This document shows positions 24,497 to 55,491 of a stretch of DNA of 64,000 nt, piece after piece; position 1 is the stretch's first letter; each line of letters opens with the position of its first letter. The stretch is from the NCBI GenBank assembly GCA_025060135.1, contig JANXCY010000013.1:2203-66202 (forward strand), read 5' to 3'. Both the position numbers and the translations under genes were made by a program. This DNA comes from Anaerolineae bacterium. GTDB lineage: Bacteria; Chloroflexota; Anaerolineae; B4-G1; DUEL01. The notes under the pieces are model-generated. The model ran no database searches. It saw only the letters and a list, made by a program, of their open reading frames with translations, and was not told where the DNA came from.

Positions 24497-24596
24497 GGGA
24501 AAACCAGGCGGGAGTGGATGGGAGTCGAACCCACCGCGGCCCGCTCTGCGCGACCCGCCACCGGTTTTGAAGACCGGGAGGCCCACCGGGACCCAA
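24497..24596 (-). tRNA. selC: tRNA-Sec (selC), anticodon UCA.
   Basis: Minus strand reads 5'-GCGGGGGUGGUUGGGUCCCGGUGGGCCUCCCGGUCUUCAAAACCGGUGGCGGGUCGCGCAGAGCGGGCCGCGGUGGGUUCGACUCCCAUCCACUCCCGCC. The acceptor is GCGGGGGU/ACUCCCGC. The D-arm is GGGUCC-CGGU-GGGCCU, a 6-bp stem with a 4-nt loop as in E. coli selC. The anticodon arm is CCGGU-CUUCAAA-ACCGG. The variable arm is about 24 nt. The T-arm is GGUUCGACUCC. CCA is not encoded. Confidence 0.75.
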
Positions 24597-24606
24597 CCAC
24601 CCCCGC

Positions 24607-30217: not shown

Positions 30218-31147
30218 CTATTCCAGAATTTCCCAGACCACATACAATGGGCGGTTGCGAACTTCGTCGTAGATGCGAGCCAGGTATTCGCCCATGACAC
30301 CCAGGAAGAGGAGTTGCGTGCCGCTGAGGATAAGGGCTACAGTCAACACCACCCCCTGCCCGGCCAGAGGGGCCTGCCCGGTCAGCCGCAGAATCAAGAG
30401 GATCAGTCCCAACAGGACCCCCAGTACCAGCAGGATCGCTCCGAACGTCCAGGCCAGCCGCAGGGGGAGGTCGGAGAAGCCGGTGATAGCATCCAGCGCC
30501 AAACGGAGCATCTTGCGGAAGGGGTATTTGGTCTGCCCGGCAAAGCGGGCATGGCGATGGTAGGGAACACCGATCTGCCGGTAGCCCACCCAGCAGGTCA
30601 TTCCCCGGATAAAGCGGCGGTGCTCCCGCATGCGGCGCATCTCCTCTACCACCCGCCGGTCCAGCAGCCGGAAATCCCCCGCCTCCATCGGGATACGGAT
30701 ATCGGTCAGGGCGGCAATCAGACGGTAGAAGAGGCGAGCGGTAAAGAGTTTGAACCAGGTCTCCCCCTCCCGCTCCGAACGGACACCGTAGACGATATGA
30801 TATCCTTCCCGCCAACGGGCCACCAGTTCGGGGATGACCTCCGGCGGATCCTGGAGGTCGGAGTCTATGGTGACAACCGCGTCGCCCCGGGCATGGTCCA
30901 TCCCGGCCGTGATGGCGATCTGGTGGCCGAAATTGCGGGCCAACCGTACCACCCGCACACGCGAGTCCTGCTGGTGCAGGTCCCGGCAGATCGCGAAACT
31001 CCCATCAGCGCTGCCATCGTCCACCAGCACCAGTTCCCAGGACTCTCCCAGCCCCTCCATCACCGCCTGTACCCGGCGGTAGAACTCGGGGAGGGTTTCC
31101 TCTTCATTGAAGACCGGAGCCACAATGGAGATGCGCGGACTGGCCAT
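30218..31147 (-). CDS. GT2 polyprenol-phosphate glycosyltransferase (DPM1/ArnC/GtrB-like).
   Basis: ISIVAPVFNEEETL, LVLVDDGSADGS and TIDSDLQDPPE give the DxD and GT-A fold motifs. Two C-terminal TM helices are present. This is the typical donor-forming enzyme for GT-C transferases. Confidence 0.8.
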   Translation of the reverse strand: MASPRISIVAPVFNEEETLPEFYRRVQAVMEGLGESWELVLVDDGSADGSFAICRDLHQQDSRVRVVRLARNFGHQIAITAGMDHARGDAVVTIDSDLQDPPEVIPELVARWREGYHIVYGVRSEREGETWFKLFTARLFYRLIAALTDIRIPMEAGDFRLLDRRVVEEMRRMREHRRFIRGMTCWVGYRQIGVPYHRHARFAGQTKYPFRKMLRLALDAITGFSDLPLRLAWTFGAILLVLGVLLGLILLILRLTGQAPLAGQGVVLTVALILSGTQLLFLGVMGEYLARIYDEVRNRPLYVVWEILE

Positions 31148-37610: not shown

Positions 37611-39173
37611 ATGTACTCTGAGACGACCCCACGGAACACGAAAAACGCAACACGGATGAAACGCCGTCGCACCGACTGGGCCGCCCTTCAGGGCTGTGCG
37701 CTCACCGGATTCGTACTGCTCTGGCTGATCGGAGCCGGACTGGTGGGGTATACGTTTGTTGCGCTGGGCCGGCAGCCGACGCCCACCCCGGTGCCGCCAC
37801 CGACTCCTCCGCCCTCTCCTACGCCGACAGCGACCCTCACTCCGACCCCTACGCCCAGCCCAACGCCGACCTTCACCCCGACACCGATGCCCAGCCCGAC
37901 CCCAACTCCAACGCGTACTGCGACGCCGACTCCCCGCCCCACTCTCCCCCTGCTCTTTCCGCCGGGCACCATGGTTATTCCTTCTCCCTTCCCGATGCCC
38001 ACGCCCGACCCCAACGCGCCCCCTGATGCAGCCATCCCGACGCCCGTGAGTCCCATCCCCGTCGCCGCCGACGCCGTCAACATCGTCGTCTTGGGCAGCG
38101 ATAAACGCCCCCATTGGACGGAATGGCACACCGACGCCATCCACATCGTCTCCATCCAGCGGAACCGGGCTGTCGTCTCCGTCATCTCCATCCCGCGCGA
38201 CCTCTATGTCTACATCCCCGGCGACGGGATGAACCGCATCAACATGGCCGACTACCACGGCGAGGCTACCGGCTACCCGGGCGGCGGGTGGGGCAACCTG
38301 CGGGATACGCTCCTCTACAACCTGGGCATCCGCGCGGACTACTACGTCCGCACCGACTTTGACGGCCTCATCGGCATCGTAGACGCGCTGGGCGGCATAG
38401 AAGTCCCCGTCCACTGCCGCCTGAGCGACCACTGGCCTTATCCCGACGCCAGCGGACAGTACCCCATCTTCACCCTGGAACCGGGCGTCCACCATCTGGA
38501 CGGCGAACAGGCCCTCTGGTACGCCCGCTCCCGGATGACGACCAGCGTCTTCTCCCGGGACCGCCGTCAGCAACAGGTCTTGCAGGCCATCTGGCACAAA
38601 ATCCGGGACGGCGGCTGGCTGGCCCAAATTCCCACCCTTTGGGACCAGTTCCAGAGCATGTTTGTGACCAACTTAGACCTGCCCACCGTCCTGGACCTGG
38701 CACGGGTGGCCTTTTTCCTGCCGGAACAGAACATCCGCTATTACAATATTGGCGCGCAGCATGTAACGCCCTGGGTAACCTCCTGGGGCGGGAACGTCTT
38801 CGTGCCCCGGTGGGAGGCGATAGAGCCACTCCTGCGGGAAGCCATGGCGCCGCCTTCCGAAGGCCGCCTGACCCGAACCTTTATGCCCGTGGAAGTCTGG
38901 AACGGGACCCCCAACCCGGACTGGGACCTGCTGGCGGTGGACCGGCTGATCCGGGCAGGCTTCCCGGCCATCCCAGGTCAACCGGATCGCCGGGATTACC
39001 CCCAGACGATGCTCATTGTCTTCCGGGAGCATGCCAAGGGGATAGGCGTGGAGGACCTGAAACGGATGTTCGGGATTCCTGAGGAGCGGGTGTCCTACGA
39101 GCCTAACTGGGGCACCGCCTACGGCTTCCGCCTGATCATCGGCGCCGATTATCAGACGTGCTATGAGAGATAG
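37611..39173 (+). CDS. LCP (LytR-CpsA-Psr) family glycopolymer transferase with a long Pro/Thr-rich linker.
   Basis: A TM anchor is followed by a PT-repeat linker of about 75 aa (37760-37990), then an LCP catalytic domain (NIVVLGSDKRP...SIPRDLYVYIPG...NRIN) and a LytR_C-like end. Confidence 0.8.
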   Translation: MYSETTPRNTKNATRMKRRRTDWAALQGCALTGFVLLWLIGAGLVGYTFVALGRQPTPTPVPPPTPPPSPTPTATLTPTPTPSPTPTFTPTPMPSPTPTPTRTATPTPRPTLPLLFPPGTMVIPSPFPMPTPDPNAPPDAAIPTPVSPIPVAADAVNIVVLGSDKRPHWTEWHTDAIHIVSIQRNRAVVSVISIPRDLYVYIPGDGMNRINMADYHGEATGYPGGGWGNLRDTLLYNLGIRADYYVRTDFDGLIGIVDALGGIEVPVHCRLSDHWPYPDASGQYPIFTLEPGVHHLDGEQALWYARSRMTTSVFSRDRRQQQVLQAIWHKIRDGGWLAQIPTLWDQFQSMFVTNLDLPTVLDLARVAFFLPEQNIRYYNIGAQHVTPWVTSWGGNVFVPRWEAIEPLLREAMAPPSEGRLTRTFMPVEVWNGTPNPDWDLLAVDRLIRAGFPAIPGQPDRRDYPQTMLIVFREHAKGIGVEDLKRMFGIPEERVSYEPNWGTAYGFRLIIGADYQTCYER

Positions 39174-40065
39174 ACCTGTGGTGGTCATAAAGGGCGGCGG
39201 TGATCTGGGCACGGGTGTCGCCTGGCGGCTCCACCGCTGCGGCTTTCGCGTCCTGGTTACCGAGATTGCCCGGCCCACGGTCATCCGCCGCGCGGTGGCC
39301 TTCGCCTCGGCGGTCTATGAGGGAACCATCACCGTAGATGGCGTTACCGCGCGGCGGGTGGAGGATGAGGCCGGTATCCGGGCCGCCTGGGCCGCCGACG
39401 AGGTCCCCGTTGTCGTGGACCCGCAGGCGGAATGGGCCGCGCGCCTCCGCCCCCTGGCGGTGATAGACGCCATCATGGCCAAGCGCAACACCGGCACCCG
39501 GATCACCGATGCACCGATTGTGGTGGCGCTGGGACCGGGATTCGTCGCCGGCGTGGATTGCCATGCGGTGGTGGAGACCCATCGGGGCCACAACCTGGGA
39601 CGGGTCATCCTGGAAGGGAGCGCCGAGCCGGATACGGGCGTCCCTGGCGAGCTGGGCGGCGAGAGCGCGCGGCGGGTCCTGCGCGCGCCCACCGACGGCA
39701 TCTTTCGGGGAATCCGCGCCATCGGCGACCAGGTACAGGCCGGAGAGGCGGTGGCCTATGTGGACAACGTCCCCGTCCTATCCCAACTGGACGGCGTCCT
39801 GCGAGGCCTCCTCCACGACGGGCTGAGAGTACGCGCGGGGATGAAGGTGGGGGATGTGGACCCCCGGGCCGTCGTCGCCCACTGCTTCACCATCTCCGAT
39901 AAGGCCCTGGCAGTCGGCGGAGGAGTGCTGGAAGCGGTCCTCTACCTGGCCCGCCGGGTTTCCCGCTCCCCAGAGGGTGCAGGAGCCATCGGAGATGATA
40001 TAGGGATGGGGCGGCAGCCTGAGACTACCGTCCCATCCCCTGGTCCTTCGCCTCTCCCAGATTAG
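39163..40065 (+). CDS. XdhC/YqeB-like Rossmann protein. It may be the EF2563-family selenium-dependent molybdenum hydroxylase maturation factor.
   Basis: VVIKGGGDLGTGVAWRLHRCGFRVLVTE...PTVIRRAVAFASAVYEG resembles the YqeB/EF2563 family. The identification is from memory and is not conclusive. The probable start is GTG at 39178. Confidence 0.4.
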   Translation: MRDRPVVVIKGGGDLGTGVAWRLHRCGFRVLVTEIARPTVIRRAVAFASAVYEGTITVDGVTARRVEDEAGIRAAWAADEVPVVVDPQAEWAARLRPLAVIDAIMAKRNTGTRITDAPIVVALGPGFVAGVDCHAVVETHRGHNLGRVILEGSAEPDTGVPGELGGESARRVLRAPTDGIFRGIRAIGDQVQAGEAVAYVDNVPVLSQLDGVLRGLLHDGLRVRAGMKVGDVDPRAVVAHCFTISDKALAVGGGVLEAVLYLARRVSRSPEGAGAIGDDIGMGRQPETTVPSPGPSPLPD

Positions 40066-42862: not shown

Positions 42863-43060
42863 ATGGAGTGCAAACAGGAACGCAATCTAACCCGCTGTAC
42901 CTGCACCTATGAACCCTGTCCCCGCAAAGGGCTCTGCTGCGAGTGTCTCTTCTACCATCTGAGCCACGACGAACTGCCCGGGTGCGTCTTCCCGCCCGAA
43001 GCGGAGCGGACTTACAACCGGTCCAAACGGTATTTTGCGCAGATTTACAGCAGAAAGTAA
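42863..43060 (+). CDS. Small cysteine-rich protein (65 aa).
   Basis: MECKQERNLTRCTCTYEPCPRKGLCCECLFYHLSHDELPGC has eight Cys. The gene has lower GC (~55%) than its surroundings. It is the first gene before the GT-C array. Family recognition is approximate. Confidence 0.45.
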   Translation: MECKQERNLTRCTCTYEPCPRKGLCCECLFYHLSHDELPGCVFPPEAERTYNRSKRYFAQIYSRK

Positions 43061-43068
43061 CTGCGCTG

Positions 43069-45339
43069 ATGGGAACGACAACCGCCACGGGGTCGGGATC
43101 AGAAACGGATCGCAGGATAACTCTCGCTGCTGTTGGTGTGGTGATCGTTTTCCTGACGATTGGCCTCTGGTATACCCTGTGGAACCCGATCGGGGAGGGA
43201 GTAGACGAGGGGGACCACTTTGAGTATGTGCGCTACATCAAAGAGCGCCGTGCGCTTCCCATTCAGCCCTGGCAAGACAACGGTCGGCCCCTGCTGGTCA
43301 GTATGGGACATCACCCTCCCCTCTACTACACCCTTCTTGCCATCGGTATAGCCTGGATCGACACCCGGGATGCACCGGATGTTCTGATTCGGAATCCTCA
43401 CTTTGTGTGGGGGGTGGATCATCCTCGCAATGGGTGGAACGTGTATCTCCACTCACCGGCGGAGAAATGGCCTTGGCGCGGGACAGTACTGGCGTTTCAT
43501 GTCGGACGAGGGTTGACCCTGCTATTCGGAGCCCTAACCCTGTGGGCCGTTTATCGGATTGGTCGCCTCCTGATTTCTGACTATCCCTGGATCGCGGTAA
43601 CCGGGATGGCCTGGCTGGCTTTCAACCCCTCGTTCATCTTTATGTGCAGTGCCATTCACCACGATGCTCTGATGGCTGCCCTGTACACGGCCGGAATGTG
43701 GTGGCTGGTACGCCTCTTTGACCAACCATGCACCCCCCGAGAAGGGATGATGGGTGGCCTCCTTCTGGGGGCGGCTATGTTGACCAAACTCTCCGGGCTC
43801 AGCCTCGCGCTGGTTTATGGATGGGGTTTTCTGCTGCTTGGCATTTCGCGCAAATCGTTTCGTCCGATTCTGCCCGGAATGATGACGACTTTCGGGGTTG
43901 CTCTTCTGGTCTCCGGCTGGTGGTATGGGCGCAACTGGGCCCTTTACGGCGACCCCCTGGGTTGGGAAATGTACCGTTCCATCTTCTGGTTCAATTTCCG
44001 CTCCACTCCCTTTACATGGGACACCTTCGTCCATGAGCTTCTCTATCAGACCGCACAAACCTTCTGGGGCGCCTTCGGGTTTATGCACATCACGCTTCCC
44101 CCAACCATCTGGTGGACGCTCTGGAAGATCGTGGCCGTCCTCACAGGGATCGCCGTAATCGCGATCCTTCGCCGACCCTATCGTTTTTTTAAGGAGAAGC
44201 GATGGGCGCCATGGTTGGGAATGGCGGGGGGATTCCTTTTTCTTTTCGGAGCGCTGATCCGAAACGCTATAGCAGTGGGCGGAGCCGGACACGCCCGATA
44301 TCTCTTTCCAGGTGTAACCGTCCTGGTCTTGCTGTGGGCCCTAGGGACGCACGCCCTGACCGCCTTTCGCTTCCAGCCCCTGCTGACAGGATTGGTCTCC
44401 CTGGGACTGGCCCTGTATGCGGTGTGGGTCCCCTACCAGTTTGTGATCCCCCTGTATCCATTACCCGAGATCGCGTCCGAAAAAGAAAGCGCATCGGCGG
44501 ATTCCCTTCATATATGCTTTGCGAGCGCAGTCTGTATCCGTTCCGGAAACCTGATCCCCCAGGATGCTCCGGGCGCTTATGTGCTGACCCTCTACTGGGA
44601 AGCATTGCCGGGGGATCGCCCGGACCTGTTTGCCCATCTGCGCGTTCAGGGGGAAGACGGAACAACTCTGATCAAGGACGCTTTCTGGCCCATTCCCAGT
44701 TTCTCCACCATAGCCTGGGAACCGGGCACCATATATCGGACTCGCCATCTCCTACAACTTCCTGGCGGTACGCCCCCGGGCACCTTTATTCTGGAAATGG
44801 CCCTGACAGTGAATCGGGATGGCGAGCCCCTCCCGGTGCGGACAGTAACCGGAGAGAAGGGGGAGGGCTTTGCTCCTATTATGCGCCTCACCCTGAATCA
44901 AGCCGTGCCCCTATCGGTATCTCCTGAGATTTCCCGAACGGAAGAATTGGAATACCGGATTCGTCTGCTGGGATATTCGCTGGGAAAGCGGACCTGGCAT
45001 CCGGGGGAGACGATAACGCTCACACTGTTCTGGCAACCCCGAGAAGCGATTCAGCCCAACCTGGTCGTCTTTGTGCATGTCCTGGACAAGCAGGGGAATC
45101 TTGTTGCCCAACACGACGGAGTGCCCGACCAGGGAAGACGTCCGACCCCCTTCTGGCAGCCAGGTGTCCTCGTGGTAGATTCCCACCCCGTGCCTCTCCC
45201 CGCAGATTTACCTCCTGGCGATTATGCGTTATGGGTAGGGATGTACCGGTGGCCTGAACTCCAACGGCTTCGGATACAGGAAGGAGCGGCTGCGGGGAAT
45301 GACCGCATTTTCCTGGAAACCATCCAGGTGAGACCGTGA
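43069..45339 (+). CDS. GT-C glycosyltransferase (ArnT/PMT GT39/GT83-like) with two C-terminal beta modules.
   Basis: More than 11 TM helices. The first periplasmic loop carries DE in GEGVDEGDHFEYVRYI. The C-terminus has two copies of the shared module (YVLTLYWEAL...FAHLRVQGEDG... and LLGY...LTLFWQP...FVHVLDKQGNLVAQHDGVP...LPPGDYALWVGMY). The start is taken at M43 of the ORF-track ORF. Confidence 0.7.
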   Translation: MGTTTATGSGSETDRRITLAAVGVVIVFLTIGLWYTLWNPIGEGVDEGDHFEYVRYIKERRALPIQPWQDNGRPLLVSMGHHPPLYYTLLAIGIAWIDTRDAPDVLIRNPHFVWGVDHPRNGWNVYLHSPAEKWPWRGTVLAFHVGRGLTLLFGALTLWAVYRIGRLLISDYPWIAVTGMAWLAFNPSFIFMCSAIHHDALMAALYTAGMWWLVRLFDQPCTPREGMMGGLLLGAAMLTKLSGLSLALVYGWGFLLLGISRKSFRPILPGMMTTFGVALLVSGWWYGRNWALYGDPLGWEMYRSIFWFNFRSTPFTWDTFVHELLYQTAQTFWGAFGFMHITLPPTIWWTLWKIVAVLTGIAVIAILRRPYRFFKEKRWAPWLGMAGGFLFLFGALIRNAIAVGGAGHARYLFPGVTVLVLLWALGTHALTAFRFQPLLTGLVSLGLALYAVWVPYQFVIPLYPLPEIASEKESASADSLHICFASAVCIRSGNLIPQDAPGAYVLTLYWEALPGDRPDLFAHLRVQGEDGTTLIKDAFWPIPSFSTIAWEPGTIYRTRHLLQLPGGTPPGTFILEMALTVNRDGEPLPVRTVTGEKGEGFAPIMRLTLNQAVPLSVSPEISRTEELEYRIRLLGYSLGKRTWHPGETITLTLFWQPREAIQPNLVVFVHVLDKQGNLVAQHDGVPDQGRRPTPFWQPGVLVVDSHPVPLPADLPPGDYALWVGMYRWPELQRLRIQEGAAAGNDRIFLETIQVRP

Positions 45340-47561
45340 GGCCCTGTTTCAGGATCGCACGCACATTTCTTCACCGCATATCTCCCGACGGGATGGCTTG
45401 CGCCTTCCTTCTCGGAGCAGCAGCCCTCTTTTTCTGGCCCCTCTGGGTCCTCGGCCATCGCTTCCCCAAAGGGAGCGGCGACCTATGGGGGCTCTGGTAT
45501 CCCGTCTGGTCCTTCGTAGCCCACTGGCTGCGCCAGGGCGTGTTCCCCCTGTGGGATCCTCTGATGATGGGAGGCGATCCCATCTTTTCGGATGTCCAGT
45601 ATGGCCTTCTGAACCCTCTCAACTGGCCCCTCTTTCTGACATCTCCCATTCCCCATTGGATGGTCCTGCTGCGGGGAGCCTTTCCTCTCTGGCTGGCTGG
45701 AGCCGGCCTGTACCTCTATCTGCGGTCCTCTTCGGTCTGGCGTTTGAAACGGGCATCCGCGCTGGTTGGGGCAACCGCATACATGTTCTCTGACCCTTTC
45801 GTTGTTCACCTGGGGAATCCTCCATTCAACGATGCGATGGCCTGGTGGCCCTGGGTTTTGCTGGGGGTAGACCGGGCTATCCACTCGGCGCGGAACATCC
45901 CCTTGGCGGCCCTGGCTGTTGCCCTGCCGATACTCTCCGGACATGGAGAGATGACTCTCTATGCAGCCTTTGCGACCGGTCTATATACTCTCTGGCAGAT
46001 GGCAGAAGGAGGTTGGCCAGAGATATTCTATCGGATGGGTCGCCTGTTACTGGCGGGTGTATTGGGCGTTGCTCTGAGTGCTCCTGCACTGCTCCCAGGC
46101 ATAGAACGGCTTCCCTTTACTGAACGAGCGGGTACTCCATGGGAACTCCGTCGCGGTTATGAATTTCCACCCTCTATGCTGGTGGACTTTTTGAGCCCTG
46201 CTTTCCATGGCCGAGGGCCAGACGAATTCTGGCCCTCATGGAATCCGGTAGAAAGCGGGTATGTGGGAGCTGTAGCGCTGTACTTGGCCGGGATAGGCCT
46301 CGTGGGAAATCACCGACACCGGCGGACCTGGTTTCTGGTGGTGCTGGGACTCCTGACCTATGCGCTGGCTCTGGGGTATCGCGGGCCTATATACCCGCTT
46401 GTGAATCGCCTTCCGCTCATAGAAGGTTCGCTCAAAACCGCTCGCAGCATTTTTCTTCTTTCCTTCGCCCTGGCCATCCTGGCTGCCCAGGGCGTGGAAT
46501 GCCTGGGCCGCCGCTGGCGAGGCACTCCCTTTTGGGCCCTCGGCCTGCTCCTGGGCGGCCTTCTCCTCGGGTGGCAGGCCCCGGCATGGGTCTCCGCCGT
46601 CCCGGAGGGCCTGCCCCGCCTGCGCGCGCTGACCGGCCTGCGGTTCGCCGCCCTCCTGGCCGGAACCACCGCCTTCCTGGGCTGGGCCGCCAACCGGGGC
46701 CACCGCTGGGGCCGGGCTGGCCTGCTCCTCCTCCTGCTGGCTGAACTGGTAGCGACCGGCGCGCTGGCGGAAACGGAGCCCACCCCGAAACCCGACTCAA
46801 CCCACACCGCCGCCCTGGCCTTCCTGCGCGCCGACCCCGGCTGGTTCCGGGTGGACGTGGACCCCACGGCGCGCGGCCTCTGGCCCCATGTCTTCCTGCA
46901 GATGGAAGGGTTTGAGGTCCCCCAAGGTATGGGCAACGCCATGGACCTGCGCAGTTTCAACATCCTCCGCTGGCGCATCCCCTCCGCGACCCACCCCGCC
47001 TACCGGATGCTCGGCGTCAAATACCTCATCGTCCCCAAGGGCGCGCCTCCAGGCGGCGAGGGCATCTGGCCCGTCTTCATAGACGATCCCACTGTGGACA
47101 TCCACCTCAACACCCTGGCGCTGCCGCGCGCCTGGCTGGTTTACCGCACGGAGGTCGTGGAAAGTTACGGAGAGGCGCTGGAAAAGGTGCTGGACGAGAA
47201 CTTCCGCCCGGAAGAGGTCGCCGTCGTCCAGAACGGGCCCCAACTGAACGGGACGGGAGAGGGAAGCATCGAAGTGGGCTATTACGGCCCCAACGACGTG
47301 GTCTTCTTCGTGGAGACGAGTGCCCCGGCTCTGCTGGTCCTCTCCGATACCTTCTATCCCGGCTGGCAGGCGACGGTAGACGGCCAGCCGGTGCCGGTCT
47401 ATCCGACCAACGCCGCTTTCCGGGGGGTACAGGTGCCGCAGGGACGCCATCGGGTGGAGATGCACTTCCGACCCCGGAGCCTGATGATGGGCCTGGGGAT
47501 GGCCGGAGCAGGAGGACTGGGATGCCTCACGCTATGGTTGATAAGGAAACGAGACCCATGA
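45336..47561 (+). CDS. yfhO: YfhO-family GT-C membrane glycosyltransferase.
   Basis: The YfhO C-terminus is LSDTFYPGWQATVDGQPVPVYPTNAAFRGVQVPQGRHRVEMHFRP, followed by a final TM. It overlaps the upstream gene by 4 nt (GTGA). Confidence 0.75.
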   Translation: MRPCFRIARTFLHRISPDGMACAFLLGAAALFFWPLWVLGHRFPKGSGDLWGLWYPVWSFVAHWLRQGVFPLWDPLMMGGDPIFSDVQYGLLNPLNWPLFLTSPIPHWMVLLRGAFPLWLAGAGLYLYLRSSSVWRLKRASALVGATAYMFSDPFVVHLGNPPFNDAMAWWPWVLLGVDRAIHSARNIPLAALAVALPILSGHGEMTLYAAFATGLYTLWQMAEGGWPEIFYRMGRLLLAGVLGVALSAPALLPGIERLPFTERAGTPWELRRGYEFPPSMLVDFLSPAFHGRGPDEFWPSWNPVESGYVGAVALYLAGIGLVGNHRHRRTWFLVVLGLLTYALALGYRGPIYPLVNRLPLIEGSLKTARSIFLLSFALAILAAQGVECLGRRWRGTPFWALGLLLGGLLLGWQAPAWVSAVPEGLPRLRALTGLRFAALLAGTTAFLGWAANRGHRWGRAGLLLLLLAELVATGALAETEPTPKPDSTHTAALAFLRADPGWFRVDVDPTARGLWPHVFLQMEGFEVPQGMGNAMDLRSFNILRWRIPSATHPAYRMLGVKYLIVPKGAPPGGEGIWPVFIDDPTVDIHLNTLALPRAWLVYRTEVVESYGEALEKVLDENFRPEEVAVVQNGPQLNGTGEGSIEVGYYGPNDVVFFVETSAPALLVLSDTFYPGWQATVDGQPVPVYPTNAAFRGVQVPQGRHRVEMHFRPRSLMMGLGMAGAGGLGCLTLWLIRKRDP

Positions 47562-49462
47562 AGGCCCACCGTCTTGTCCTTCGGACCGGCCTGCTGGCCC
47601 TGCTCTTGGTGGCCTGGGCCCTGCGGACGGCGACCCTCACCCTCCAGAGCATGTGGATTGACGAGGTGATGGCCCTCTACTTCACGCGTGGGACCTTCAC
47701 CGAAACCCTCAGTACCATCGTCCGCCCAGAGCATAACGGCCCCCTCTTCTATCTCCTGCTCTTCGGGTGGCGGCACCTGGTGGGGGATTCCGATTTCGCC
47801 GTCCGCTACCTTTCCGTCCTCTTCTCCGTCTTGACTCTCCCCCTCCTCTATCAACTGGCTCGTCGCTTGCTGACCGAGCGGGCGGCGGCGCTGGCCCTGT
47901 GGCTGGCGGCCTTCTCGCCTTTCGCCCTCTGGTTTGCCCAGGAAGCGAAAATGTACGCCCTGCATATGTGGGCCGCCACCGCCTCCACTGTGGCTCTCCT
48001 GGAAGCGTTCCGAAAAGGCCGCTGGTGGCGCTGGGCCATCTACGCTCTCCTCCTCTCCCCCACCCTCTACAGCCACTTCTTCGGGGGATTCCTGGCCCTG
48101 GCCCAGGGAGTAATGAGCGGCATCCTGGGCTGGGGACGCTGGCGGCGCTGGCTGGCCTATGGGCTGACTGTGGCCCTCCTGGCTCTGGTACATGCCCCCC
48201 TGCTCCGGGTGGCCTGGAACGTGGTCCGTTATTACCAGCATCGGGACATCTGGCGGTACTTCGTCCCACTGAAAGACATCGCCCGGGACCTATTGGGCCA
48301 GTACTTCTACCGGCTCTCCTACCTGGAGGTTACCCCCTGGCTCCTCCTGCTCCCGGCCATCCTCCTGGCCTGGGGAGTCTCAGCCCTCTTTCGTTCCCAC
48401 CGAAGGGACGCCTGGATTTTGCCCGTCCAGGCCCTGTTACCCGTGCTGGTGTTCTACCTCGTTTCCTACCGAGCCCCGGTCTACTCGGCCAAGTACCTCT
48501 CGGCGATCGCCCCGGCGGTCTGGATTCTGACGGCCTGGGGTGCCGAACGGATGGCTTGCCTCTGGCGACCGCTGGGCCTGAGCGCGGCCATCCTGGGACT
48601 CCTGACCGTCAACGGTATCGCCCGCGATCTGACCCGCCCTGCTTTCCAGCGGGGGGATTGGCGCTTCATCGCCCGCTACGTAGAGACCCACGAGGGGCCC
48701 AACGACATCGTCGTGATCTCCGCCTTCTACTGCGAGCATGCCTTCCGGCGGTACTACCGGGGCCATTCAGCCATCTTCCCCTACGAAGCCAATCCCTACG
48801 ACCCGGAGTTTATCTATCGGGGATTGCCGGAAAAGTACGACCGAATGTGGCTGGTCCTTCATCACGACCAGGCCATGGCGCCCGGGAACCGGCTCATAGA
48901 AGCCGCCGACGCGATGTTCCCCCGCCTCACCGAACAATACCCCAACGCCGGACAGATCACGCTGATCGGCTACCAGTTGCGGCCGACGATCCCAGCACTG
49001 CCAGAAGAGGCCCGTCCTCTGGAAGTCTGTTTTCAGAACGGCATCTGCCTGGCAGGCTATCAGGTGGATATGAACGCGCTCCCGGCAAGGGAAAACCTCT
49101 CCCATCCTCCCAGCAACTGGCTCCACGTGACCCTCTATTGGAGACGGACGGCGTCCTTTGACGGCGTCCCCTTCCGCCCTCTGATCCGGCTGATCGATGA
49201 GACCTTTAACGTCTGGGGAGGGAATATGAAGCGCAACCCAGACCTGCTGGACCGCTACCCGCCCCAAGAGTGGCCGACTGACCGGCTGGTGGAGGACCAT
49301 TACGACCTCAACCTGAACCCGTTCACACCTCCCGGAACCTATCGCCTGGAGGTGAGCCTGGCGGTCCACGGGGAGGAGCATCAGCGCGTCCCGCTGGCCG
49401 ACCCGCTACCGGGCATGCCACCCGACCGCTGGGTGTTTGAGAACATCCGCGTCCTCCCCTGA
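47558..49462 (+). CDS. GT-C glycosyltransferase (ArnT/PMT-like) paralog.
   Basis: The DE motif is MWIDEVMALYF. It has 11-13 TM helices and the shared C-terminal module (WLHVTLYWRR...LIRLIDE...TPPGTYRLEVSLAVHG). The start MKAHRLVL overlaps the yfhO stop (ATGA). Confidence 0.7.
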   Translation: MKAHRLVLRTGLLALLLVAWALRTATLTLQSMWIDEVMALYFTRGTFTETLSTIVRPEHNGPLFYLLLFGWRHLVGDSDFAVRYLSVLFSVLTLPLLYQLARRLLTERAAALALWLAAFSPFALWFAQEAKMYALHMWAATASTVALLEAFRKGRWWRWAIYALLLSPTLYSHFFGGFLALAQGVMSGILGWGRWRRWLAYGLTVALLALVHAPLLRVAWNVVRYYQHRDIWRYFVPLKDIARDLLGQYFYRLSYLEVTPWLLLLPAILLAWGVSALFRSHRRDAWILPVQALLPVLVFYLVSYRAPVYSAKYLSAIAPAVWILTAWGAERMACLWRPLGLSAAILGLLTVNGIARDLTRPAFQRGDWRFIARYVETHEGPNDIVVISAFYCEHAFRRYYRGHSAIFPYEANPYDPEFIYRGLPEKYDRMWLVLHHDQAMAPGNRLIEAADAMFPRLTEQYPNAGQITLIGYQLRPTIPALPEEARPLEVCFQNGICLAGYQVDMNALPARENLSHPPSNWLHVTLYWRRTASFDGVPFRPLIRLIDETFNVWGGNMKRNPDLLDRYPPQEWPTDRLVEDHYDLNLNPFTPPGTYRLEVSLAVHGEEHQRVPLADPLPGMPPDRWVFENIRVLP

Positions 49463-49551
49463 ATAGAATTGATGGAGACCAAGTCCGTTGCTGCTCTGGG
49501 GAAAATCCACTCTGTCCGCGTTCATCCGCGTCCCATCTCCGATGAGGTCTT

Positions 49552-51489
49552 ATGAACGCCGCAGACGATCATCTGGCCCGCTTCCGGGTGACTCCATATC
49601 CATACTGGGCCCTCGCGGCGATCCTGCTGCTGGGCGCATCTCTGCGCTGGCACCCTATCGGGTCGCTCTCGGATATGCTCAGTTACGATGAGGCTTACTA
49701 TGGCCTGGACACCCTTTCCCTGATAGAATCCCCTCGCCTGACCCCGTTCCTCCCGGCCAATCTGGGCCGCCAGAGCCTCTGGTGCTATATCTTGATTCCC
49801 TTCGTCGCCCTCTTCGGAGCCCACCCGTTTGCCCTGCGGGTCGCCGCAGGATTCGTGGGCATCCTGACCGCCACCGCTGTGTACCGGCTGGGGAGAGAGA
49901 CTCTCTCCCCCGGGGCAGCCCGCTGGGCCCTCCTGGCCTTCTGCGTTGCCGGATGGCCTGTCCATCAGAGCGGCCTGGGAATGCGGGCTATCCTCTGGCC
50001 CCTGGTCGGCACCCTGGCCTTCGCGGCCCTCTTGCAGGCCCGACGTACTGGCCGGACGACCCTCTGGATAGAGGCAGGCCTCTGGATCGGGATGCTCTGG
50101 TACACCTACTTCTCGGCTCTCCTCTGGCTTCTCTACGCGGTGCTTCTGCTTATCGGATGGCTGTTCGGGAAGAGGGGCCCGCGCCGGGGAGGGCTGATTG
50201 CCCTGGGAGTGAGCGCGTTGGTGTCGCTTCCCATGCTGGTGTATGGCTACCATCACCCCCAGGAAGTCCTGGGACGCCCGCAAGGAGTGCGGGTCTCCGG
50301 CCTGGCGGACCTGATGGCCACCCTGCGGGCATGGGCCCGGGTCTGGTTCTCCCCTGCCGACGACCCGGGCCGCTACAACCCCCTCTGCCCGGTGGTGGAT
50401 GCCGGGCTGGCGGCCTTCTTCGTCATCGGGCTGTTCGCTCTCAGTTGGGCCGTCCGCCAGAGATGGCAGGCCGTTTGGCTCCTGGGACTGGTCCCGGTCT
50501 CTCTCCTCCCCTCCCTCCTGAGCCGGGACGCTCCCCACTTCCTGCGCGCGGCGGGCCTGACGGTCCCCATCGCGCTGATGGTGGGAGCCGGAGCATGGGG
50601 AGTGGAGCAACTCCTGCGCCGTATCCGTCTGAAGCCCTTGGCGACCCTGTTCCCGCTCGCGCTCATGCTCCTGACGGCCCTCCTCACCGTCCTGAACACC
50701 ACTCGCTGGCTTCGCCATCCCTACGTCTTTCTCCTGATGGAACAACACGTGAACCAGGGGGCGAACTTTATCCGGTCGGCTGTTCCAGAGGATACGCCGG
50801 TGTACTTCTCGCCCTTCTATCCCTCCCATCCGGTGATCGCCTTTCGCCGGGCCGACCTGGCTCCCCGGCCCGTTGGCGCTTTTGATAGCCACCTCTGCAT
50901 GGTGGTTCCGGAGCAGCCTGCGGTCTATCTCTCCGTCATCCTCTATGAGCCCGATTTTCCGGAGAAACTCTCCCGTTGGGCCGGAACGACGGTCCTTTTC
51001 CAGGACCCCGGGGCCCGTCCCCCGCGCTACGCTGTCTTGGAGGCCGTGCCAAAACCGGAGTTCCCGCAGAACCTGGGGGTGGTTCGGGCCGTCTTCGGGG
51101 GGCAGGTGGAAGTGCGCCTCATGGAGCCGCTTCCGTCGGCCGCGCGCGTCGGGGAGACCGTTCCGATCTATCTGGCCTTGCGGGCCCAGCGGCCACTGGA
51201 TCGGGCCTACAGCCTCTTCGTCCACCTTTACGGCGACCCGACCCCCTACGAGGGCGGCCCGCTCTGGGCCCAGGCCGACGGTCCGGCCTGCGGGCCGTAT
51301 ACCTCCGACCTCTGGCGGACGGAGGAGTGGATATTGACCACTTTCTCTCTGACCCTCCCTGGAGACCTTCCTTCCGGACGCTACCAGGTCGGCATGGGCA
51401 TCTACGATAGCACCACCGGAATCCGCCTGGCCCTGCCGGGGCATACTCACGACTTCCTCTCCCTTCAGCAAGTGGAAATCCGCCGATGA
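49552..51489 (+). CDS. GT-C glycosyltransferase (ArnT/PMT-like) paralog.
   Basis: The motif is SYDEAYYG, on a polytopic protein. The C-terminal module is VPIYLALRAQ...FVHLYGDP...LPSGRYQVGMGIYD. Confidence 0.7.
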   Translation: MNAADDHLARFRVTPYPYWALAAILLLGASLRWHPIGSLSDMLSYDEAYYGLDTLSLIESPRLTPFLPANLGRQSLWCYILIPFVALFGAHPFALRVAAGFVGILTATAVYRLGRETLSPGAARWALLAFCVAGWPVHQSGLGMRAILWPLVGTLAFAALLQARRTGRTTLWIEAGLWIGMLWYTYFSALLWLLYAVLLLIGWLFGKRGPRRGGLIALGVSALVSLPMLVYGYHHPQEVLGRPQGVRVSGLADLMATLRAWARVWFSPADDPGRYNPLCPVVDAGLAAFFVIGLFALSWAVRQRWQAVWLLGLVPVSLLPSLLSRDAPHFLRAAGLTVPIALMVGAGAWGVEQLLRRIRLKPLATLFPLALMLLTALLTVLNTTRWLRHPYVFLLMEQHVNQGANFIRSAVPEDTPVYFSPFYPSHPVIAFRRADLAPRPVGAFDSHLCMVVPEQPAVYLSVILYEPDFPEKLSRWAGTTVLFQDPGARPPRYAVLEAVPKPEFPQNLGVVRAVFGGQVEVRLMEPLPSAARVGETVPIYLALRAQRPLDRAYSLFVHLYGDPTPYEGGPLWAQADGPACGPYTSDLWRTEEWILTTFSLTLPGDLPSGRYQVGMGIYDSTTGIRLALPGHTHDFLSLQQVEIRR

Positions 51490-51498
51490 AGGAGCAAA

Positions 51499-53532
51499 AT
51501 GAGAGAGAATCGGGGGGAGAAAAAAAGGATTGTGGAGATGCTCTATCCTTGCCGGCTGTCGGACCTGCTCATCCTGATCACTCTGGCCCTGGGCCTCTTC
51601 CTGCGCACCGCCTGGCCGACGCTGGCGGAGTTCAAACTGGACGAGGCCACGGTGGTCCGCCGGGCGATGGCCATCGCCTGGCAGGGCGAACTTCCCGTTC
51701 TGGGGATGGGCTCCTCTACCGGAATGGCCAACCTTCCCCTCACTCTCTACCTGACCGCCATCCCCCTCCGGATATGGAGCGACCCGGTGGCAGCGGTCGT
51801 CTTTATCGGTCTGCTCAACGGGCTGGCCGTAGCGGCCTGCTATTGGCTGGGGGAGCGGTTTTGGAACCGCTCTGTTGGTGGAATTGCCGCCTTTCTGTTT
51901 GCTCTCAATCCATGGGCGGTCCTCCTGGCCCGCAAAATCTGGCCCCGCATCCTCCCTCTGGTGACCGTTGCACTTGTGGCTGCCCTGATGGCGACGTTCG
52001 TCCGGCAACGTCGGTGGGCCCTGGTCGGCGCCTTCGCTGCGCTGGCCGCGCTGGTCGGTCTCCAACTGGAAGGCATCGCTTTTATCCCCGTGCTGGTGCT
52101 CTGCCTGCTACTGTTCTGGAAAGAAGTCCCTCTCCGCCCGCTCCTGGTCGGCATTGCAGTCTTTACCCTGGCCCTTGCCCCCTACGGGATCTACGACGCG
52201 CTGCACGGATGGCCAAATCTCCGGACATTCTGGGACTTCGTCCACACCGAAAAAAGTTCCTTCTCCTGGGACGCCCTCCGCTATGCGTTCATCCTGACCG
52301 GAAGCGCCGAAATCCACACGATGGCCGGCACCCGCTATGAGGAGTACTTGGGCGGTCTCCCCCGTCTGGGGTGGCTCAACACCGGGATGATGGGGCTCCT
52401 GGCCCTGGCCCTGATCTACGCCATTATCCGGACCTTGCGGGGGACACAGGAGGAGCGGCGGGTGTTCCTCATCCTCTTGCTGGGATTCGCGGTACCGGTC
52501 GCCCTGCGCAGCCGGGCCGTAGAACCGATTCCCTCGCATTATCTGATAGTGGTTTATCCGACCGTTTTCCTCCTGATCGCGGCGCTGATCGACGGAGGAT
52601 ACCGGGCCCTTCCACTGCGCTATCGTCCAGCCGCCCAGGTAATGGGCTTTCTGCTGGCTCTCCTCTGGGGAGCCTGGCAACTGGCCGTCCTGGGCCGTCT
52701 TTTCTGGTTTATGGACCGGTATCCCACCACCGGTGGCTACGGCATTCCCCTGAAGTATCCCCGTCAGGCCGCGCTAGAGGCCCGCCAGATAGCCCAGGGA
52801 GCGGAAATCGTCGTCCTGAGCGACGGGACGGAGCCAGCCTTTGAGGAGCGCCCGGCCGTCTTTGACGCTCTCCTCTTTCGCCACCCCCACCGCCTGGTAG
52901 ACGGCCGGATGTCCCTGCTGGTGCCAGATGCCCCCCGTGTGGTCTACATCGTCGGGCCGGTCTCCCCGAAGGGAGACAATTTCCACCCCATAGAGGGACG
53001 ATTGCGCAGGATGGCCAGCGTTCGGGAAACAACCGTCTCCATGCCGGACGGATGGCAATATCACCTTTATCTGCGAGAGCGAGCCGACCGGGAGGATGTG
53101 CTGGCTGGGCTCACCCGCCCTGCAGACCCACCGCGCTGGGCCAACGGCATCGTCCTGCTGGGCTACGATGTGCCCCAAACCATTGCCCCCGGATCTACCC
53201 TGGAGGTCTGGCTGGCCTGGTGGGTGCAGGTCGGGCCGCCGCCGGGAAGCGATTACCACTTCTTCGTCCACCTCCTGGATGGCGAAGGGCACCTGCTCAG
53301 CCAGCACGACGGCGTACCGTTTCCGACCTCCTCCTGGCGCGCCGGCGACCTGGTGCTGAGCCGCTTCACCGTTCCCATCCCTTCAGACCTTCCGCCGGGG
53401 CCCTACCCGGTACGGGCCGGCCTCTATACGTACCCCGACATCCAGGGGGTCCCGGTCGTGGACGCTATAGGCCATCCGATAGAGAGCGCCGTCCTCTTGG
53501 GAACCATTACCGTCCGTCAGGATCAGGGGTAA
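51499..53532 (+). CDS. GT-C glycosyltransferase (ArnT/PMT-like) paralog.
   Basis: The motif is FKLDEATVV. The C-terminal module is LLGYDV...LEVWLAWW...FFVHLLDGEGHLLSQHDGVPFP...LPPGPYPVRAGLYTY. The alternative start is 51538. Confidence 0.7.
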   Translation: MRENRGEKKRIVEMLYPCRLSDLLILITLALGLFLRTAWPTLAEFKLDEATVVRRAMAIAWQGELPVLGMGSSTGMANLPLTLYLTAIPLRIWSDPVAAVVFIGLLNGLAVAACYWLGERFWNRSVGGIAAFLFALNPWAVLLARKIWPRILPLVTVALVAALMATFVRQRRWALVGAFAALAALVGLQLEGIAFIPVLVLCLLLFWKEVPLRPLLVGIAVFTLALAPYGIYDALHGWPNLRTFWDFVHTEKSSFSWDALRYAFILTGSAEIHTMAGTRYEEYLGGLPRLGWLNTGMMGLLALALIYAIIRTLRGTQEERRVFLILLLGFAVPVALRSRAVEPIPSHYLIVVYPTVFLLIAALIDGGYRALPLRYRPAAQVMGFLLALLWGAWQLAVLGRLFWFMDRYPTTGGYGIPLKYPRQAALEARQIAQGAEIVVLSDGTEPAFEERPAVFDALLFRHPHRLVDGRMSLLVPDAPRVVYIVGPVSPKGDNFHPIEGRLRRMASVRETTVSMPDGWQYHLYLRERADREDVLAGLTRPADPPRWANGIVLLGYDVPQTIAPGSTLEVWLAWWVQVGPPPGSDYHFFVHLLDGEGHLLSQHDGVPFPTSSWRAGDLVLSRFTVPIPSDLPPGPYPVRAGLYTYPDIQGVPVVDAIGHPIESAVLLGTITVRQDQG

Positions 53533-53538
53533 CGACCA

Positions 53539-55491
53539 ATGAGAATTTCGCGTTCCGGCCTTGCTCTTCTGGTCGCTCTCGGGCTCATTGTCCTCTGTGG
53601 GATCACCTATGGATTTTCCCTGAGGCTACCTCTTTTTTCCGACGACATTCCCCACTTCCGGTGGATGGAAGGGCAAACCTGGCTGGGAATTTTGATCTCC
53701 TCCAGAGGAATCGGGTATTATCGGCCTCTGCCGTTTCTGGTCTGGAAACTCCTGCGCTCTCTCCAGGGCGGCCTCAACGCTCCGACGCTTCACGGAATCA
53801 ATCTGGCACTTCATCTGCTGAACGCTTTTATGGTGTGGGGCGTGGTGAACCGGCAGTTAGGGAAGAAGAGATGGGGAGTCGGAGAGGCCAGCGCACTCCT
53901 CTTCCTGACGTACCCCTTCAGTTACCAGGCAGTGCCCTGGGTGGGTGCTCTTACCCACCCTCTGGTTACGGCTATTATCCTGGGATCCCTGTACCTGAAC
54001 CTACGGGCAAAATCTCACCCTGCTGGTCTGTGGCATGCCCTTTCGGTCGGTCTGGCGTTTCTGGCGCCGCTGGCTCACGAGACCGGTATCCTGACCGCGC
54101 CGCTCCTCTGCCTGTTGCTGTTAACTGGTGAGGAAAGGTACTCGCTTTCCGGAGTCCTCCGACGGACCCGCTGCTACTGGTTGGCTGGGATGGTTGGGTT
54201 GGCCATCTGGCTGGCAGTACCCAAGGGGGTCCAGCCTCCGCGAATCTGGAATCTGGAGGCCCGCTACCAGAATGGCGTTTATCTCCTCCAGGGGCTGGCC
54301 TATCCGGTAGCACCGCTGGCCCGGAAGGTGTGGGAGGCTGGATGGGGGCTGGACGACCTCCAGTCCGTTCTATTGGTGTGCGCGCCCGTGGTGCTCCTCT
54401 GGGGATGGCTTTTAGCGATGAAAGGCCAGCAGCAGCTTCTCGTACTGGCTTCCGGGTGGTTTCTGCTGGCTGTTGCTCCGGCCGGGTTGATGTTGGGGTT
54501 TGAGTACGTGATAGATGCACCCCGGCTCCTCTATCTCTCATCCGTGGGGACAGCGCTATTCTGGACCGCACCTCTCTCCATCTGGAAAGCATCTCGGCAC
54601 GGACGGCTGGGGAGAATCGCTGCCGGGCTCGCCGTTCTCTCCATCGCCATGAGCGGTTTTGTCTTCATCCGCCAGCGGGCCGCCATCTACGAAGAAATGG
54701 GGAGGTGGATCGCCCAGTTCGTTCAGGGAGTTCGATCCGTCTCCGCACCTGGACCGGTGCTGTGTGTCAACTGCCCCGAGTTCCTGGCCCCGCGCGAACC
54801 CACCTTCGCCGTTGGGCACGAGGGAGTCCCAATTTGCGCCGGACACCAACTGGGCGACCTGTTCTGGGTCAACACACGAGAGGAGCGAAAGGTTACCGGA
54901 CTGGTCTTCCCCGACCTTCAGCGGCCCTGGAAATATCATTATGGAAGCGCGGGTGAGGCCCACACCTGGATAAGCCTCCAAGAGCCCCTTCGGAAGGCTG
55001 ACGCCGTTCTCCTGACGGAGTATTGGGGAGACAAGATCGCCGTTTATCCGGTTGGCATGCTGGCGATGAACGACGCTTCGCCTGCCGATACGTTCATCGC
55101 TGAATTTGGATCCCGGATCCGCCTGCTTTCGGCCGAGGTGGAACGGGAAGGCGAAATGGTGAGAGTGGAATTGTACTGGCAGGCAGTAACACCGGTGGAA
55201 GAGGATATGACCGTCTTCTTGCATGTGCTGGACCCGTCAGGCCGATTGGTGGCGCAGCGCGATGGATACCCCCTGATGGGACTCTCCCGACCAGTGGCCT
55301 GGCGTCAGGGGGATATCTGGCAGGACCTGCGTTGGCTGCGGCTACCAGAAGGAGGATACCAGTTCCTGGTGGGTCTATACACCGTGGAGGGAGGCATGCG
55401 CATTCCTGCGACTGATCCGGCGGGTCGTCGCTTCCCCGACAACGCTGTGCCCCTGGGAGAATTCACCTTCATCAGCACTGGCGGGATATAG
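53539..55491 (+). CDS. GT-C glycosyltransferase (ArnT/PMT-like) paralog.
   Basis: The motif is FSDDIPHF. The C-terminal module is IRLLSAEV...VELYWQAV...VFLHVLDPSGRLVAQRDGYPL...LPEGGYQFLVGLYTV. Confidence 0.7.
   Translation: MRISRSGLALLVALGLIVLCGITYGFSLRLPLFSDDIPHFRWMEGQTWLGILISSRGIGYYRPLPFLVWKLLRSLQGGLNAPTLHGINLALHLLNAFMVWGVVNRQLGKKRWGVGEASALLFLTYPFSYQAVPWVGALTHPLVTAIILGSLYLNLRAKSHPAGLWHALSVGLAFLAPLAHETGILTAPLLCLLLLTGEERYSLSGVLRRTRCYWLAGMVGLAIWLAVPKGVQPPRIWNLEARYQNGVYLLQGLAYPVAPLARKVWEAGWGLDDLQSVLLVCAPVVLLWGWLLAMKGQQQLLVLASGWFLLAVAPAGLMLGFEYVIDAPRLLYLSSVGTALFWTAPLSIWKASRHGRLGRIAAGLAVLSIAMSGFVFIRQRAAIYEEMGRWIAQFVQGVRSVSAPGPVLCVNCPEFLAPREPTFAVGHEGVPICAGHQLGDLFWVNTREERKVTGLVFPDLQRPWKYHYGSAGEAHTWISLQEPLRKADAVLLTEYWGDKIAVYPVGMLAMNDASPADTFIAEFGSRIRLLSAEVEREGEMVRVELYWQAVTPVEEDMTVFLHVLDPSGRLVAQRDGYPLMGLSRPVAWRQGDIWQDLRWLRLPEGGYQFLVGLYTVEGGMRIPATDPAGRRFPDNAVPLGEFTFISTGGI

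Follow-up and report, generated by a model that had tools for sequence, protein, structure and literature searches.

Positions 43069-55491 of the 64,000-nucleotide stretch analysed here (hereafter the window; Anaerolineae bacterium, Chloroflexota, GenBank assembly GCA_025060135.1, contig JANXCY010000013.1) hold six consecutive genes, G1 to G6, that encode polytopic glycosyltransferases of the GT-C type, five of which end in the same C-terminal beta module. A sequence-only reading of this DNA had placed a run of six same-strand genes here, and six intact open reading frames (ORFs) were indeed found on the + strand between these positions (Table 1). G5 and G6 are identical to RML46_08395 and RML46_08400, respectively, of a metagenome-assembled genome (MAG) deposited at NCBI as 'Anaerolineae bacterium'.

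Table 1. Genes of the array, copies of the C-terminal module and further features discussed in the text. Positions are those of the window; aa, amino acids; HMM, hidden Markov model.
Feature	Position	Strand	Description
G1	43069-45339	+	756 aa; PMT_2-like GT-C, DE first-loop motif, two C-terminal modules
G2	45336-47561	+	741 aa; YfhO-family GT-C, without module
G3	47522 (or 47558)-49462	+	646 aa; PMT_2 (GT39/GT83-like) GT-C, DE motif
G4	49552-51489	+	645 aa; PMT_2-like GT-C, DE motif
G5	51499-53532	+	677 aa; GT39/PMT_2-like GT-C
G6	53539-55491	+	650 aa; GT-C-fold, DD motif, family without Pfam or NCBIfam model
G1 module copy a	44515-44859	+	partial, more divergent; seed HMM 2.9e-10, family HMM 1.7e-14
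G1 module copy b	44947-45336	+	family HMM 2.1e-42
G3 module	49028-49459	+	most divergent copy, with insertions; family HMM 2.4e-19
G4 module	51100-51486	+	family HMM 2.1e-21
G5 module	53134-53520	+	copy used for structure prediction
G6 module	55102-55473	+	family HMM 1.5e-28
DUF6485 ORF	42863-43060	+	65 aa, Cys-rich; Pfam DUF6485 6.6e-8
TMEM260-like (DUF2723) GT-C protein	10622-13588	-	988 aa; modules 11399-11725, 10652-10984
GT2 candidate polyprenyl-phosphate sugar synthase	30218-31147	-	Pfam Glycos_transf_2 2.7e-36

The genes had been described as joined by ATGA or GTGA overlaps, which holds for two of the five junctions. G1 and G2 share a GTGA (45336-45339), and G2 and G3 share an ATGA (47558-47561) if G3 starts at MKAHRL (ATG 47558); the G3/G4, G4/G5 and G5/G6 junctions are gaps of 89, 9 and 6 nt, respectively. 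A consensus scan detected no terminator-like site in any junction among the six genes, and the promoter scan of the array was uninformative: the only promoter-like site that it returned lies within G6. The coupling or closeness of the genes at four of the five junctions suggests co-expression, and the six genes are probably co-transcribed as one operon. The start of G1 was set at ATG 43069, and the upstream GTG at 42943 was ruled out because the DUF6485 ORF stops 8 nt before this ATG. The C-terminal 23 residues of the DUF6485 product recur, with 91% identity, at the start of another locus (L009), just upstream of a related array described below. Because of this recurrence, the DUF6485 gene is possibly co-transcribed with the GT-C genes.

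Many long ORFs also run antisense to the region, among them one of 847 aa (49522-52065, - strand) that spans G4 and G5. We rejected these ORFs as genes. They are most likely by-products of the high G+C content (~60-65%), since the + frames have conserved orthologues under purifying selection.

Five of the six proteins had been called ArnT/PMT-like and one YfhO. The YfhO assignment stands, as G2 scores well above the cutoff of the Pfam model (PF09586, 1.1e-24, 87.4 bits vs 28.5, residues 35-411); its matches to the NCBIfam equivalogs PgfM2 (45 bits vs a cutoff of 1500) and PgfM1 (26 vs 1400) leave both unassigned. G3 matches PMT_2 directly (2.6e-11, 44.4 bits vs 26.1). G1, G4, G5 and G6 gave no match to Pfam or NCBIfam, also with the C-terminus removed, and the first three of these are placed through relatives. 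The N-terminal domain of G1 matches P0177 (1.4e-48) and P0035 (2.3e-29), proteins with PMT_2, PMT and DUF2142 domains; for that of G4, the matches are P0081 (2.9e-45) and P0052, with PMT_2 and PMT domains. G4 also aligns with G3 in the first-loop region (BLASTP 0.002). Many of the homologues listed for G5 contain PF13231 or have 'glycosyltransferase family 39' or 'ArnT family' in their names.

G6 joins this group by fold search and not as PMT_2 by sequence, an assignment that we found unsupported, since the G6 family could be aligned with the G5 family by hhalign in the C-terminal module only. Its family comprises at least 169 Chloroflexota 'hypothetical proteins' without a Pfam model (homologues P0299-P0418, ~650 aa). 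A structure model of G6 computed with 72 homologues reached a mean local confidence (pLDDT) of 95.9 and a predicted template-modelling score (pTM) of 0.93. The best match in the fold search was Pmt4, and AglB, ArnT, AftA/B and ALG12 scored almost as high; GT-C fold similarity does not separate acceptor types. With a very confident GT-C fold and an invariant DD pair but no library model, G6 is a candidate founder of a new GT-C sequence family. A profile search of Protein Data Bank sequences returned no significant relative for the G5 family, the G6 family or the module.

The acidic first-loop motifs that had been noted were read directly as VDEGD (G1), IDEV (G3), YDEA (G4), LDEA (G5) and SDDI (G6), so that a DE or DD pair lies just after the first hydrophobic helix in all five non-YfhO proteins. 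Both residues are invariant in the G5 family (D48 and E49, 48 sequences) and in the G6 family (D35 and D36, 72 sequences). The presence of six GT-C genes is thus supported, with evidence that differs in strength by gene: Pfam for G2 and G3, relatives for G1, G4 and G5, and fold for G6. Outside the module, the membrane domains of the six proteins show little or no mutual similarity by BLAST or hhalign, which argues that the array is a clustering of old families and not the result of recent tandem duplication.

G1, G3, G4, G5 and G6 all end in an all-beta module of about 125 residues. Pairwise comparison of the C-termini gave BLASTP E-values from 3e-17 to 1e-3, with 38% identity and an E-value of 3e-17 for G1 copy b against the G5 module. 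An HMM made from five copies of the module, run over the 409 six-frame ORFs of the window that reach 80 aa, matched no protein other than these five and the TMEM260-like one (10622-13588), and domain E-values with a family-wide HMM ranged from 2e-42 to 2e-14. The family consensus, LLGYdL..PG..L.LTLYWQA....DYtVFvHLlD..G...Q.D..P..G.yPT..W.pGE...D.y.L.....PPG.YrLevGlY, agrees with the one given in the sequence-only reading, and the doubling of the module in G1 was likewise found, as copies a and b. For the TMEM260-like protein (Pfam PF11028, 8e-25, 88.1 bits vs a cutoff of 24.2), three copies had been proposed; two are significant (7.1e-17 and 2.1e-16), and the third, a short degenerate stretch between them, is not significant alone. 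Eukaryotic TMEM260 has a C-terminal TPR region, in place of which this protein carries the beta modules.

When the G6 and G5 families were aligned with hhalign, the module was the sole alignable region (probability 98.7%, E-value 1.6e-16, 124 columns). Since it is joined to membrane domains that cannot otherwise be aligned, the module appears to be a mobile accessory domain. A tryptophan, a histidine, a Q-x-D-G-x-P motif, a second tryptophan and a G-x-Y motif are conserved in the G5 family, in the G6 family and family-wide.

Structure prediction for the G5 module gave an eight-stranded immunoglobulin-like (Ig-like) beta-sandwich that is confidently all-beta (pLDDT 89). In Foldseek searches against solved structures, the top matches were consistently the carbohydrate-binding domain (CBD) of the O-antigen transport protein Wzt (1.2e-5, TM-score 0.62-0.66), one of them sugar-bound, in keeping with the carbohydrate-binding beta-sandwich that had been suspected from the sequence. 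Other neighbours were alpha-2-macroglobulin MG domains, arrestin, RbmA and CARDB. The likeness to the Wzt CBD, as modelled, lies at fold level only. Assignment of the module to Wzt_C (PF14524) was rejected, as the best score was 14.1 bits against a gathering threshold of 30.4, for G1 copy b only (0.049), and the family consensus gave no match. In Pfam (2025) and NCBIfam (2026), no model reached its threshold for any module copy, the family consensus or the multi-copy proteins; sub-threshold matches were to Wzt_C, NPCBM_assoc, MG2, ML, DUF4832, AA9 and MalQ_N, all beta-sandwiches. Literature searches returned no description of the module itself.

To place the module among known proteins, a HMMER profile search was carried out against 1.84 billion representative proteins, clustered at 50% identity. 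It returned 28,540 clusters at an E-value of 1e-3 or less, 18,993 at 1e-10 or less and 4,346 at 1e-30 or less. The 150 best-scoring proteins are mostly about 1000 aa long with three tandem copies (range 2-4), and the module is always at the extreme C-terminus, the last copy ending a median of 1 residue from the end of the protein. The N-terminal parts fused to it are PMT_2, TMEM260-like, PTPS_related and, weakly, YfhO-like.

Furthermore, one genome per species was scanned with five consensus-like module queries, which yielded 349 confirmed stretches, and the 79 best loci, of at most 10 kb each, were analysed. Almost all of them come from MAGs of Anaerolineae, Anaerolineales, Caldilineae or unclassified Chloroflexota, a taxonomic picture that is biased toward close relatives because the scan was built on two narrow peptide patterns; several genomes contributed 3-4 loci. 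One module-bearing ORF was present in 32 loci, two in 21, three in 20 and four in 6, with 1-4 module copies per ORF. At least two such ORFs thus occur in 47 of the 79 loci and at least three in 26, of which 21 are strictly co-directional. The module and the arrays of genes that carry it thus characterise Chloroflexota in general and are not peculiar to the window. The earlier suggestion that the module and the expansion of paralogues correspond to no named system stands insofar as no library model exists for the module; neither is special to this locus, given the many clusters and the arrays common in Anaerolineae and Caldilineae MAGs.

The array itself is conserved in close relatives. In L009 (GCA_034435875.1), orthologues of G2-G6 lie in the same order at 76-84% identity (G2, 76%; G3, 84%; G4, 81%), with a DUF6485 gene before the array. 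The first GT-C gene of L009 is only 29% identical to G1, indicating that the first slot of the array is variable. L010 (GCA_017880035.1) carries a related array that consists of a 746-aa gene, a YfhO gene 73% identical to G2, a 912-aa three-module gene, a PMT_2 gene, a Zn-ribbon gene, a 674-aa module-bearing gene in the position of G5 and a G6 orthologue. The three-module gene (L010 2275-5289) occupies a slot that is absent from the window, and the small Zn_ribbon_DnaG gene (L010 7261-7647) is inserted between two GT-C genes; these insertions represent turnover within the array. Synteny of this kind was absent around more distant orthologues.

Compared with L009, the ratios of nonsynonymous to synonymous substitution rates (dN/dS) are 0.22 for G2, 0.16 for G3, 0.22 for G4 and 0.20 for G5, and these four genes are under purifying selection. 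We rejected the possibility that the paralogues are pseudogenes, as the ORFs match their orthologues in length, without truncation, and dN/dS lies between 0.16 and 0.22. Downstream of the array, gene content is not conserved and differs both in L010 and around a close G5 orthologue (L008).

The sequence-only reading had tied several other genes of the window to the array. The GT2 (glycosyltransferase family 2) protein that it named is present, matches NCBIfam PgfS (6.5e-78) and ArnC (3e-65), both under their equivalog cutoffs (PgfS, 262 bits vs 500), and has a hydrophobic C-terminal tail in translation. As a putative polyprenyl-phosphate sugar synthase, it is a plausible donor supplier for the array. 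PgfS/GtrB-like GT2 genes, 32-36% identical to that of the window, lie directly upstream of module-bearing GT-C ORFs in at least three loci from other Anaerolineae MAGs (L044, L047 and L049), which supports a functional link between such GT2 proteins and module-bearing GT-C enzymes in general. A further locus, L015, also encodes a PgfS-like GT2, located roughly 2 kb downstream of the match to the module.

RmlD, a GT4, an LCP protein (37611-39173) with a Pro/Thr-rich linker of about 100 residues and VanW are present in the window as described. Of the two DUF1080 lipoproteins, the second was confirmed by Pfam; the first has no Pfam match and is linked to the family only through 33% identity to the second. 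The proposed membership of these genes in the same pathway was not supported. It rests on their position in the same window, no homologues were found near related arrays, and we rejected DUF1080, VanW, RmlD, GT4 and LCP as parts of the system. Also rejected was a pathway of the pentofuranose or decaprenyl-phosphate arabinose (DPA) type, composed of a UbiA-family synthase, a DprE1-like oxidase and a GT-C enzyme, because the UbiA-family gene of the window is MenA (152 bits vs a cutoff of 102). The flavin-dependent (FAD) oxidase in the window is GlcD-like, with only a weak match to DprE1.

The gene for the TMEM260-like protein contains an in-frame, AT-rich imperfect palindrome (12161-12217, - strand; arms 12161-12180 and 12198-12217). 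It folds at -32 kcal/mol as a 93-nt RNA and encodes NRTNQEDTKTQRKYNQFTSCLRVFVV where homologues have a hydrophobic helix. The arm sequence has no other occurrence in the window, and the palindrome could reflect either the insertion of a small element or an error of the assembly. Elsewhere, the window carries a tRNA-Sec gene (24507-24604, - strand; Rfam 71.4 bits, ARAGORN anticodon TCA) and a gene for YqeB, a selenium-dependent molybdenum-cofactor protein (39163-40065, + strand; TIGR03309, 9e-113), which together suggest that the organism uses selenium. A gene for an encapsulin shell protein is located at 3680-4468 (+ strand; Linocin_M18, 2.2e-67).

We favour, with confidence a little better than even, the interpretation that six GT-C enzymes of ancient divergence are encoded here in a lineage-specific cluster, probably a single operon, that they glycosylate the cell envelope and that their module binds the acceptor. 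If they work as characterised GT-C enzymes do, a polyprenyl-phosphate sugar would serve each of them as donor at the outer face of the cytoplasmic membrane, catalysis would rely on the conserved DE/DD motif of the first extracytoplasmic loop, and an envelope acceptor, either polymer or protein, would receive the sugar. In five of the six, the membrane domain would be followed by an extracytoplasmic region that ends in the Ig-like beta-sandwich of about 125 aa. This module would bind the acceptor, most likely a repetitive envelope glycopolymer, and the differing catalytic domains encoded side by side would attach differing sugars, or form differing linkages, on one envelope polymer or on related ones.

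Acceptor binding by the module is suggested by its resemblance in fold, its tandem copies, its terminal position and the analogy with the carbohydrate-binding modules (CBMs) of Emb, AftD and GT136. Tandem copies would fit the binding of a polymer, as they are typical of domains that bind repetitive polymers. Envelope glycosylation as the general function, already put forward from the sequence, agrees with the GT-C families to which the proteins belong, as the members that have been characterised glycosylate targets of the envelope on the outer side of the membrane. Earlier work describes GT-C enzymes in which a C-terminal CBM binds the acceptor glycan (PMC11127046), as well as YfhO and multi-component systems made of a GT2, a flippase and a GT-C enzyme (PMC5836110, PMC8035078). 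Chloroflexota have neither lipopolysaccharide (LPS) nor the machinery for beta-barrel assembly (BAM), and their envelopes are multilayered, with outer layers suggested to be polysaccharide or protein (PMC13319060). Lipid A is therefore not the target, and the present data do not discriminate between a protein and a polysaccharide as acceptor.

Several observations weigh against this interpretation. The 89-nt gap before G4 speaks against a single operon. Solitary positions or other contexts were seen for G5 orthologues with 77% identity or less and for a G6 orthologue with 58% (37-77% identity for G5 and G6 together). Since distant orthologues of these two genes stand alone and the first gene is swapped in L009, the six enzymes need not share one substrate. 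The GT2 gene of the window is 12 kb away from the array, on the opposite strand, and adjoins an unrelated ResB-like gene. No GtrA/GtcA-type flippase emerged from a crude hydropathy screen of the window (all ORFs of 90-260 aa), although one may be encoded elsewhere in the genome; only two of these ORFs, LspA and the ResB-like protein, have at least three hydrophobic segments. The placement of the module outside the membrane derives from GT-C topology and helix counts, and its conserved residues could line a pocket at the surface or belong to the hydrophobic core. The activity, donor and acceptor of every member are predictions from sequence and analogy.

A different acceptor is conceivable. The enzymes could be protein O-glycosyltransferases of the PMT, Pgf or PgtC2 kind that modify disordered, Ser/Thr/Pro-rich linkers in exported envelope proteins, for example in the LCP protein, with the module recognising the protein substrate or folded domains flanking the linker. 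The PMT_2 match of G3 and the Pmt4 match of G6 point this way, as does the TMEM260-like family, which includes a proven protein O-mannosyltransferase (PMC10214176). Streptococcal GtrB with PgtC2, and Pgf, glycosylate Ser/Thr-rich disordered regions of LytR (itself an LCP protein), PBP1a, PrsA and PknB (10.1101/2024.05.05.592596), and here an LCP protein carries a long Pro/Thr-rich linker. Fold likeness is blind to acceptor type, however, with AglB, ArnT, AftA/B and ALG12 matching nearly as well as Pmt4. The best NCBIfam matches of G2 (PgfM2 and PgfM1) and of the GT2 (PgfS) do belong to the protein-glycosylation system of S. mutans, but they fall far under the equivalog cutoffs (45 bits vs 1500 and 262 vs 500, respectively). 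In addition, the LCP gene lies 4 kb from the array with unrelated genes on both strands between them and no conserved linkage was seen, and among solved structures the module comes closest to a domain that binds glycans. We consider protein O-glycosylation unlikely, though with a real chance of being correct.

It is also possible that the array is not a pathway at all, and that the numerous module-bearing GT-C genes of Anaerolineae gather by duplication, insertion and replacement while acting on independent acceptors. The ancient divergence of the six membrane domains would be explained in this way, as would the solitary orthologues of G5 and G6, the different paralogue in the first slot of L009, the inserted three-module and Zn-ribbon genes of L010 and the frequency of arrays of varied composition (47 of 79 loci with two or more module-bearing ORFs). 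Yet two other MAGs preserve the order of G2-G6 (73-85% identity), coupling or very short gaps mark four of the five junctions, and most arrays with at least three members (21 of 26) are strictly co-directional, so that we find a chance gathering rather doubtful. We judge similarly improbable the proposal that the module is a structural element and not an acceptor binder, serving as a spacer or ruler above the membrane, as an oligomerisation domain or as an anchor to peptidoglycan or an outer layer. Its fold is generic, with many non-lectin neighbours (the MG domains, arrestin, RbmA and CARDB), a copy number of 1-4 would suit a spacer, and the CBM of GT136 appeared dispensable for activity (PMC11127046). 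Against this stand the strong conservation of the histidine, the Q-x-D-G-x-P motif and the tryptophan across very divergent families, beyond what a pure spacer would need, and the consistency with which Wzt CBDs, one of them sugar-bound, head the Foldseek matches.

A broader and distinctly speculative extension, to which we attach a low probability, would be that module-bearing GT-C arrays assemble the outer envelope layers of Chloroflexota wholly outside the membrane, with polyprenyl-phosphate sugars as donors, as an analogue of mycobacterial arabinan and lipoarabinomannan (LAM) synthesis. The module would then be a phylum-wide polymer-tracking domain that holds the enzyme on the growing glycan, and G6 would found a new GT-C family. 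GT83 is among the most abundant glycosyltransferase families of Chloroflexi in surveys of carbohydrate-active enzymes (PMC6306507, PMC11650866). Enzymes of the GT83/GT39 type likewise rank among the commonest glycosyltransferases of the phylum (PMC6306507), and the module and G6 families could give a handle on its envelope polymers. Recombinant modules could serve to fish for the polymer acted on. Furthermore, defining a domain of about 28,500 clusters that has neither a Pfam nor an NCBIfam model would improve the annotation of thousands of hypothetical or half-annotated proteins.

The locus is therefore an annotation gap and not a new kind of system, and the general picture of GT-C enzyme action is unchanged by these findings. 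Its value lies in a large uncatalogued domain family and a GT-C family without a Pfam model; GT-C enzymes with C-terminal domains resembling glycan binders, and their tandem arrangement as in embCAB, are known. In the multi-component systems GtrB/GtrA/Gtr*, CsbB/GtcA/YfhO and ArnC/ArnT, the polyprenyl-phosphate sugar is the product of a GT2, and a GT-C enzyme carries out the transfer outside the membrane (PMC5836110, PMC8035078, PMC11127046). The locus resembles them in its YfhO-family G2, in the PgfS/ArnC-like GT2 of the window and in the GT2 genes that adjoin related ORFs in L044, L047 and L049. It differs in that six GT-C genes are arrayed, the GT2 is not adjacent and the window has no recognisable GtrA/GtcA flippase; moreover, the classical GT-C members are without this C-terminal module, and lipid A, the acceptor of ArnT, is absent from Chloroflexota.

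Compared with the protein O-glycosylation enzymes PMT/Pmt, TMEM260, TMTC, PgtC2 and PgfM1/PgfM2, the window shares PMT_2 and TMEM260-like domains, a best fold match to Pmt4 for G6 and a nearby LCP linker. These families also have an accessory extracytoplasmic domain after or within the GT-C domain that is thought to help select the substrate. That domain is MIR or TPR in those enzymes and a beta-sandwich here, and the Pgf matches are far below their cutoffs. The C-terminal CBD of Wzt in O-antigen ATP-binding cassette (ABC) transporters differs from the module in sequence (~15% identity) and in setting: it is a cytoplasmic dimer borne by an ABC ATPase, whereas the module would be extracytoplasmic, borne by a GT-C enzyme. 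In both cases, a C-terminal appendage recognises, or in the module would recognise, the glycan handled by the membrane machine to which it is attached.

The mycobacterial DPA users EmbC/EmbA/EmbB and AftA-D show no detectable sequence homology to the array proteins. The module is different from their CBMs and uncatalogued, the window has no DPA pathway, and the host belongs to Chloroflexota. The architecture is nevertheless alike, with several GT-C genes in tandem (embCAB) and with a polytopic GT-C domain followed by a beta-rich C-terminal domain, extracytoplasmic in Emb/Aft, where it consists of CBMs, and presumably so here. Emb and Aft enzymes act in succession on one envelope polysaccharide with sugar from a lipid phosphate (the roles of their CBMs are summarised in PMC11127046), and the enzymes of the array may act in the same manner.

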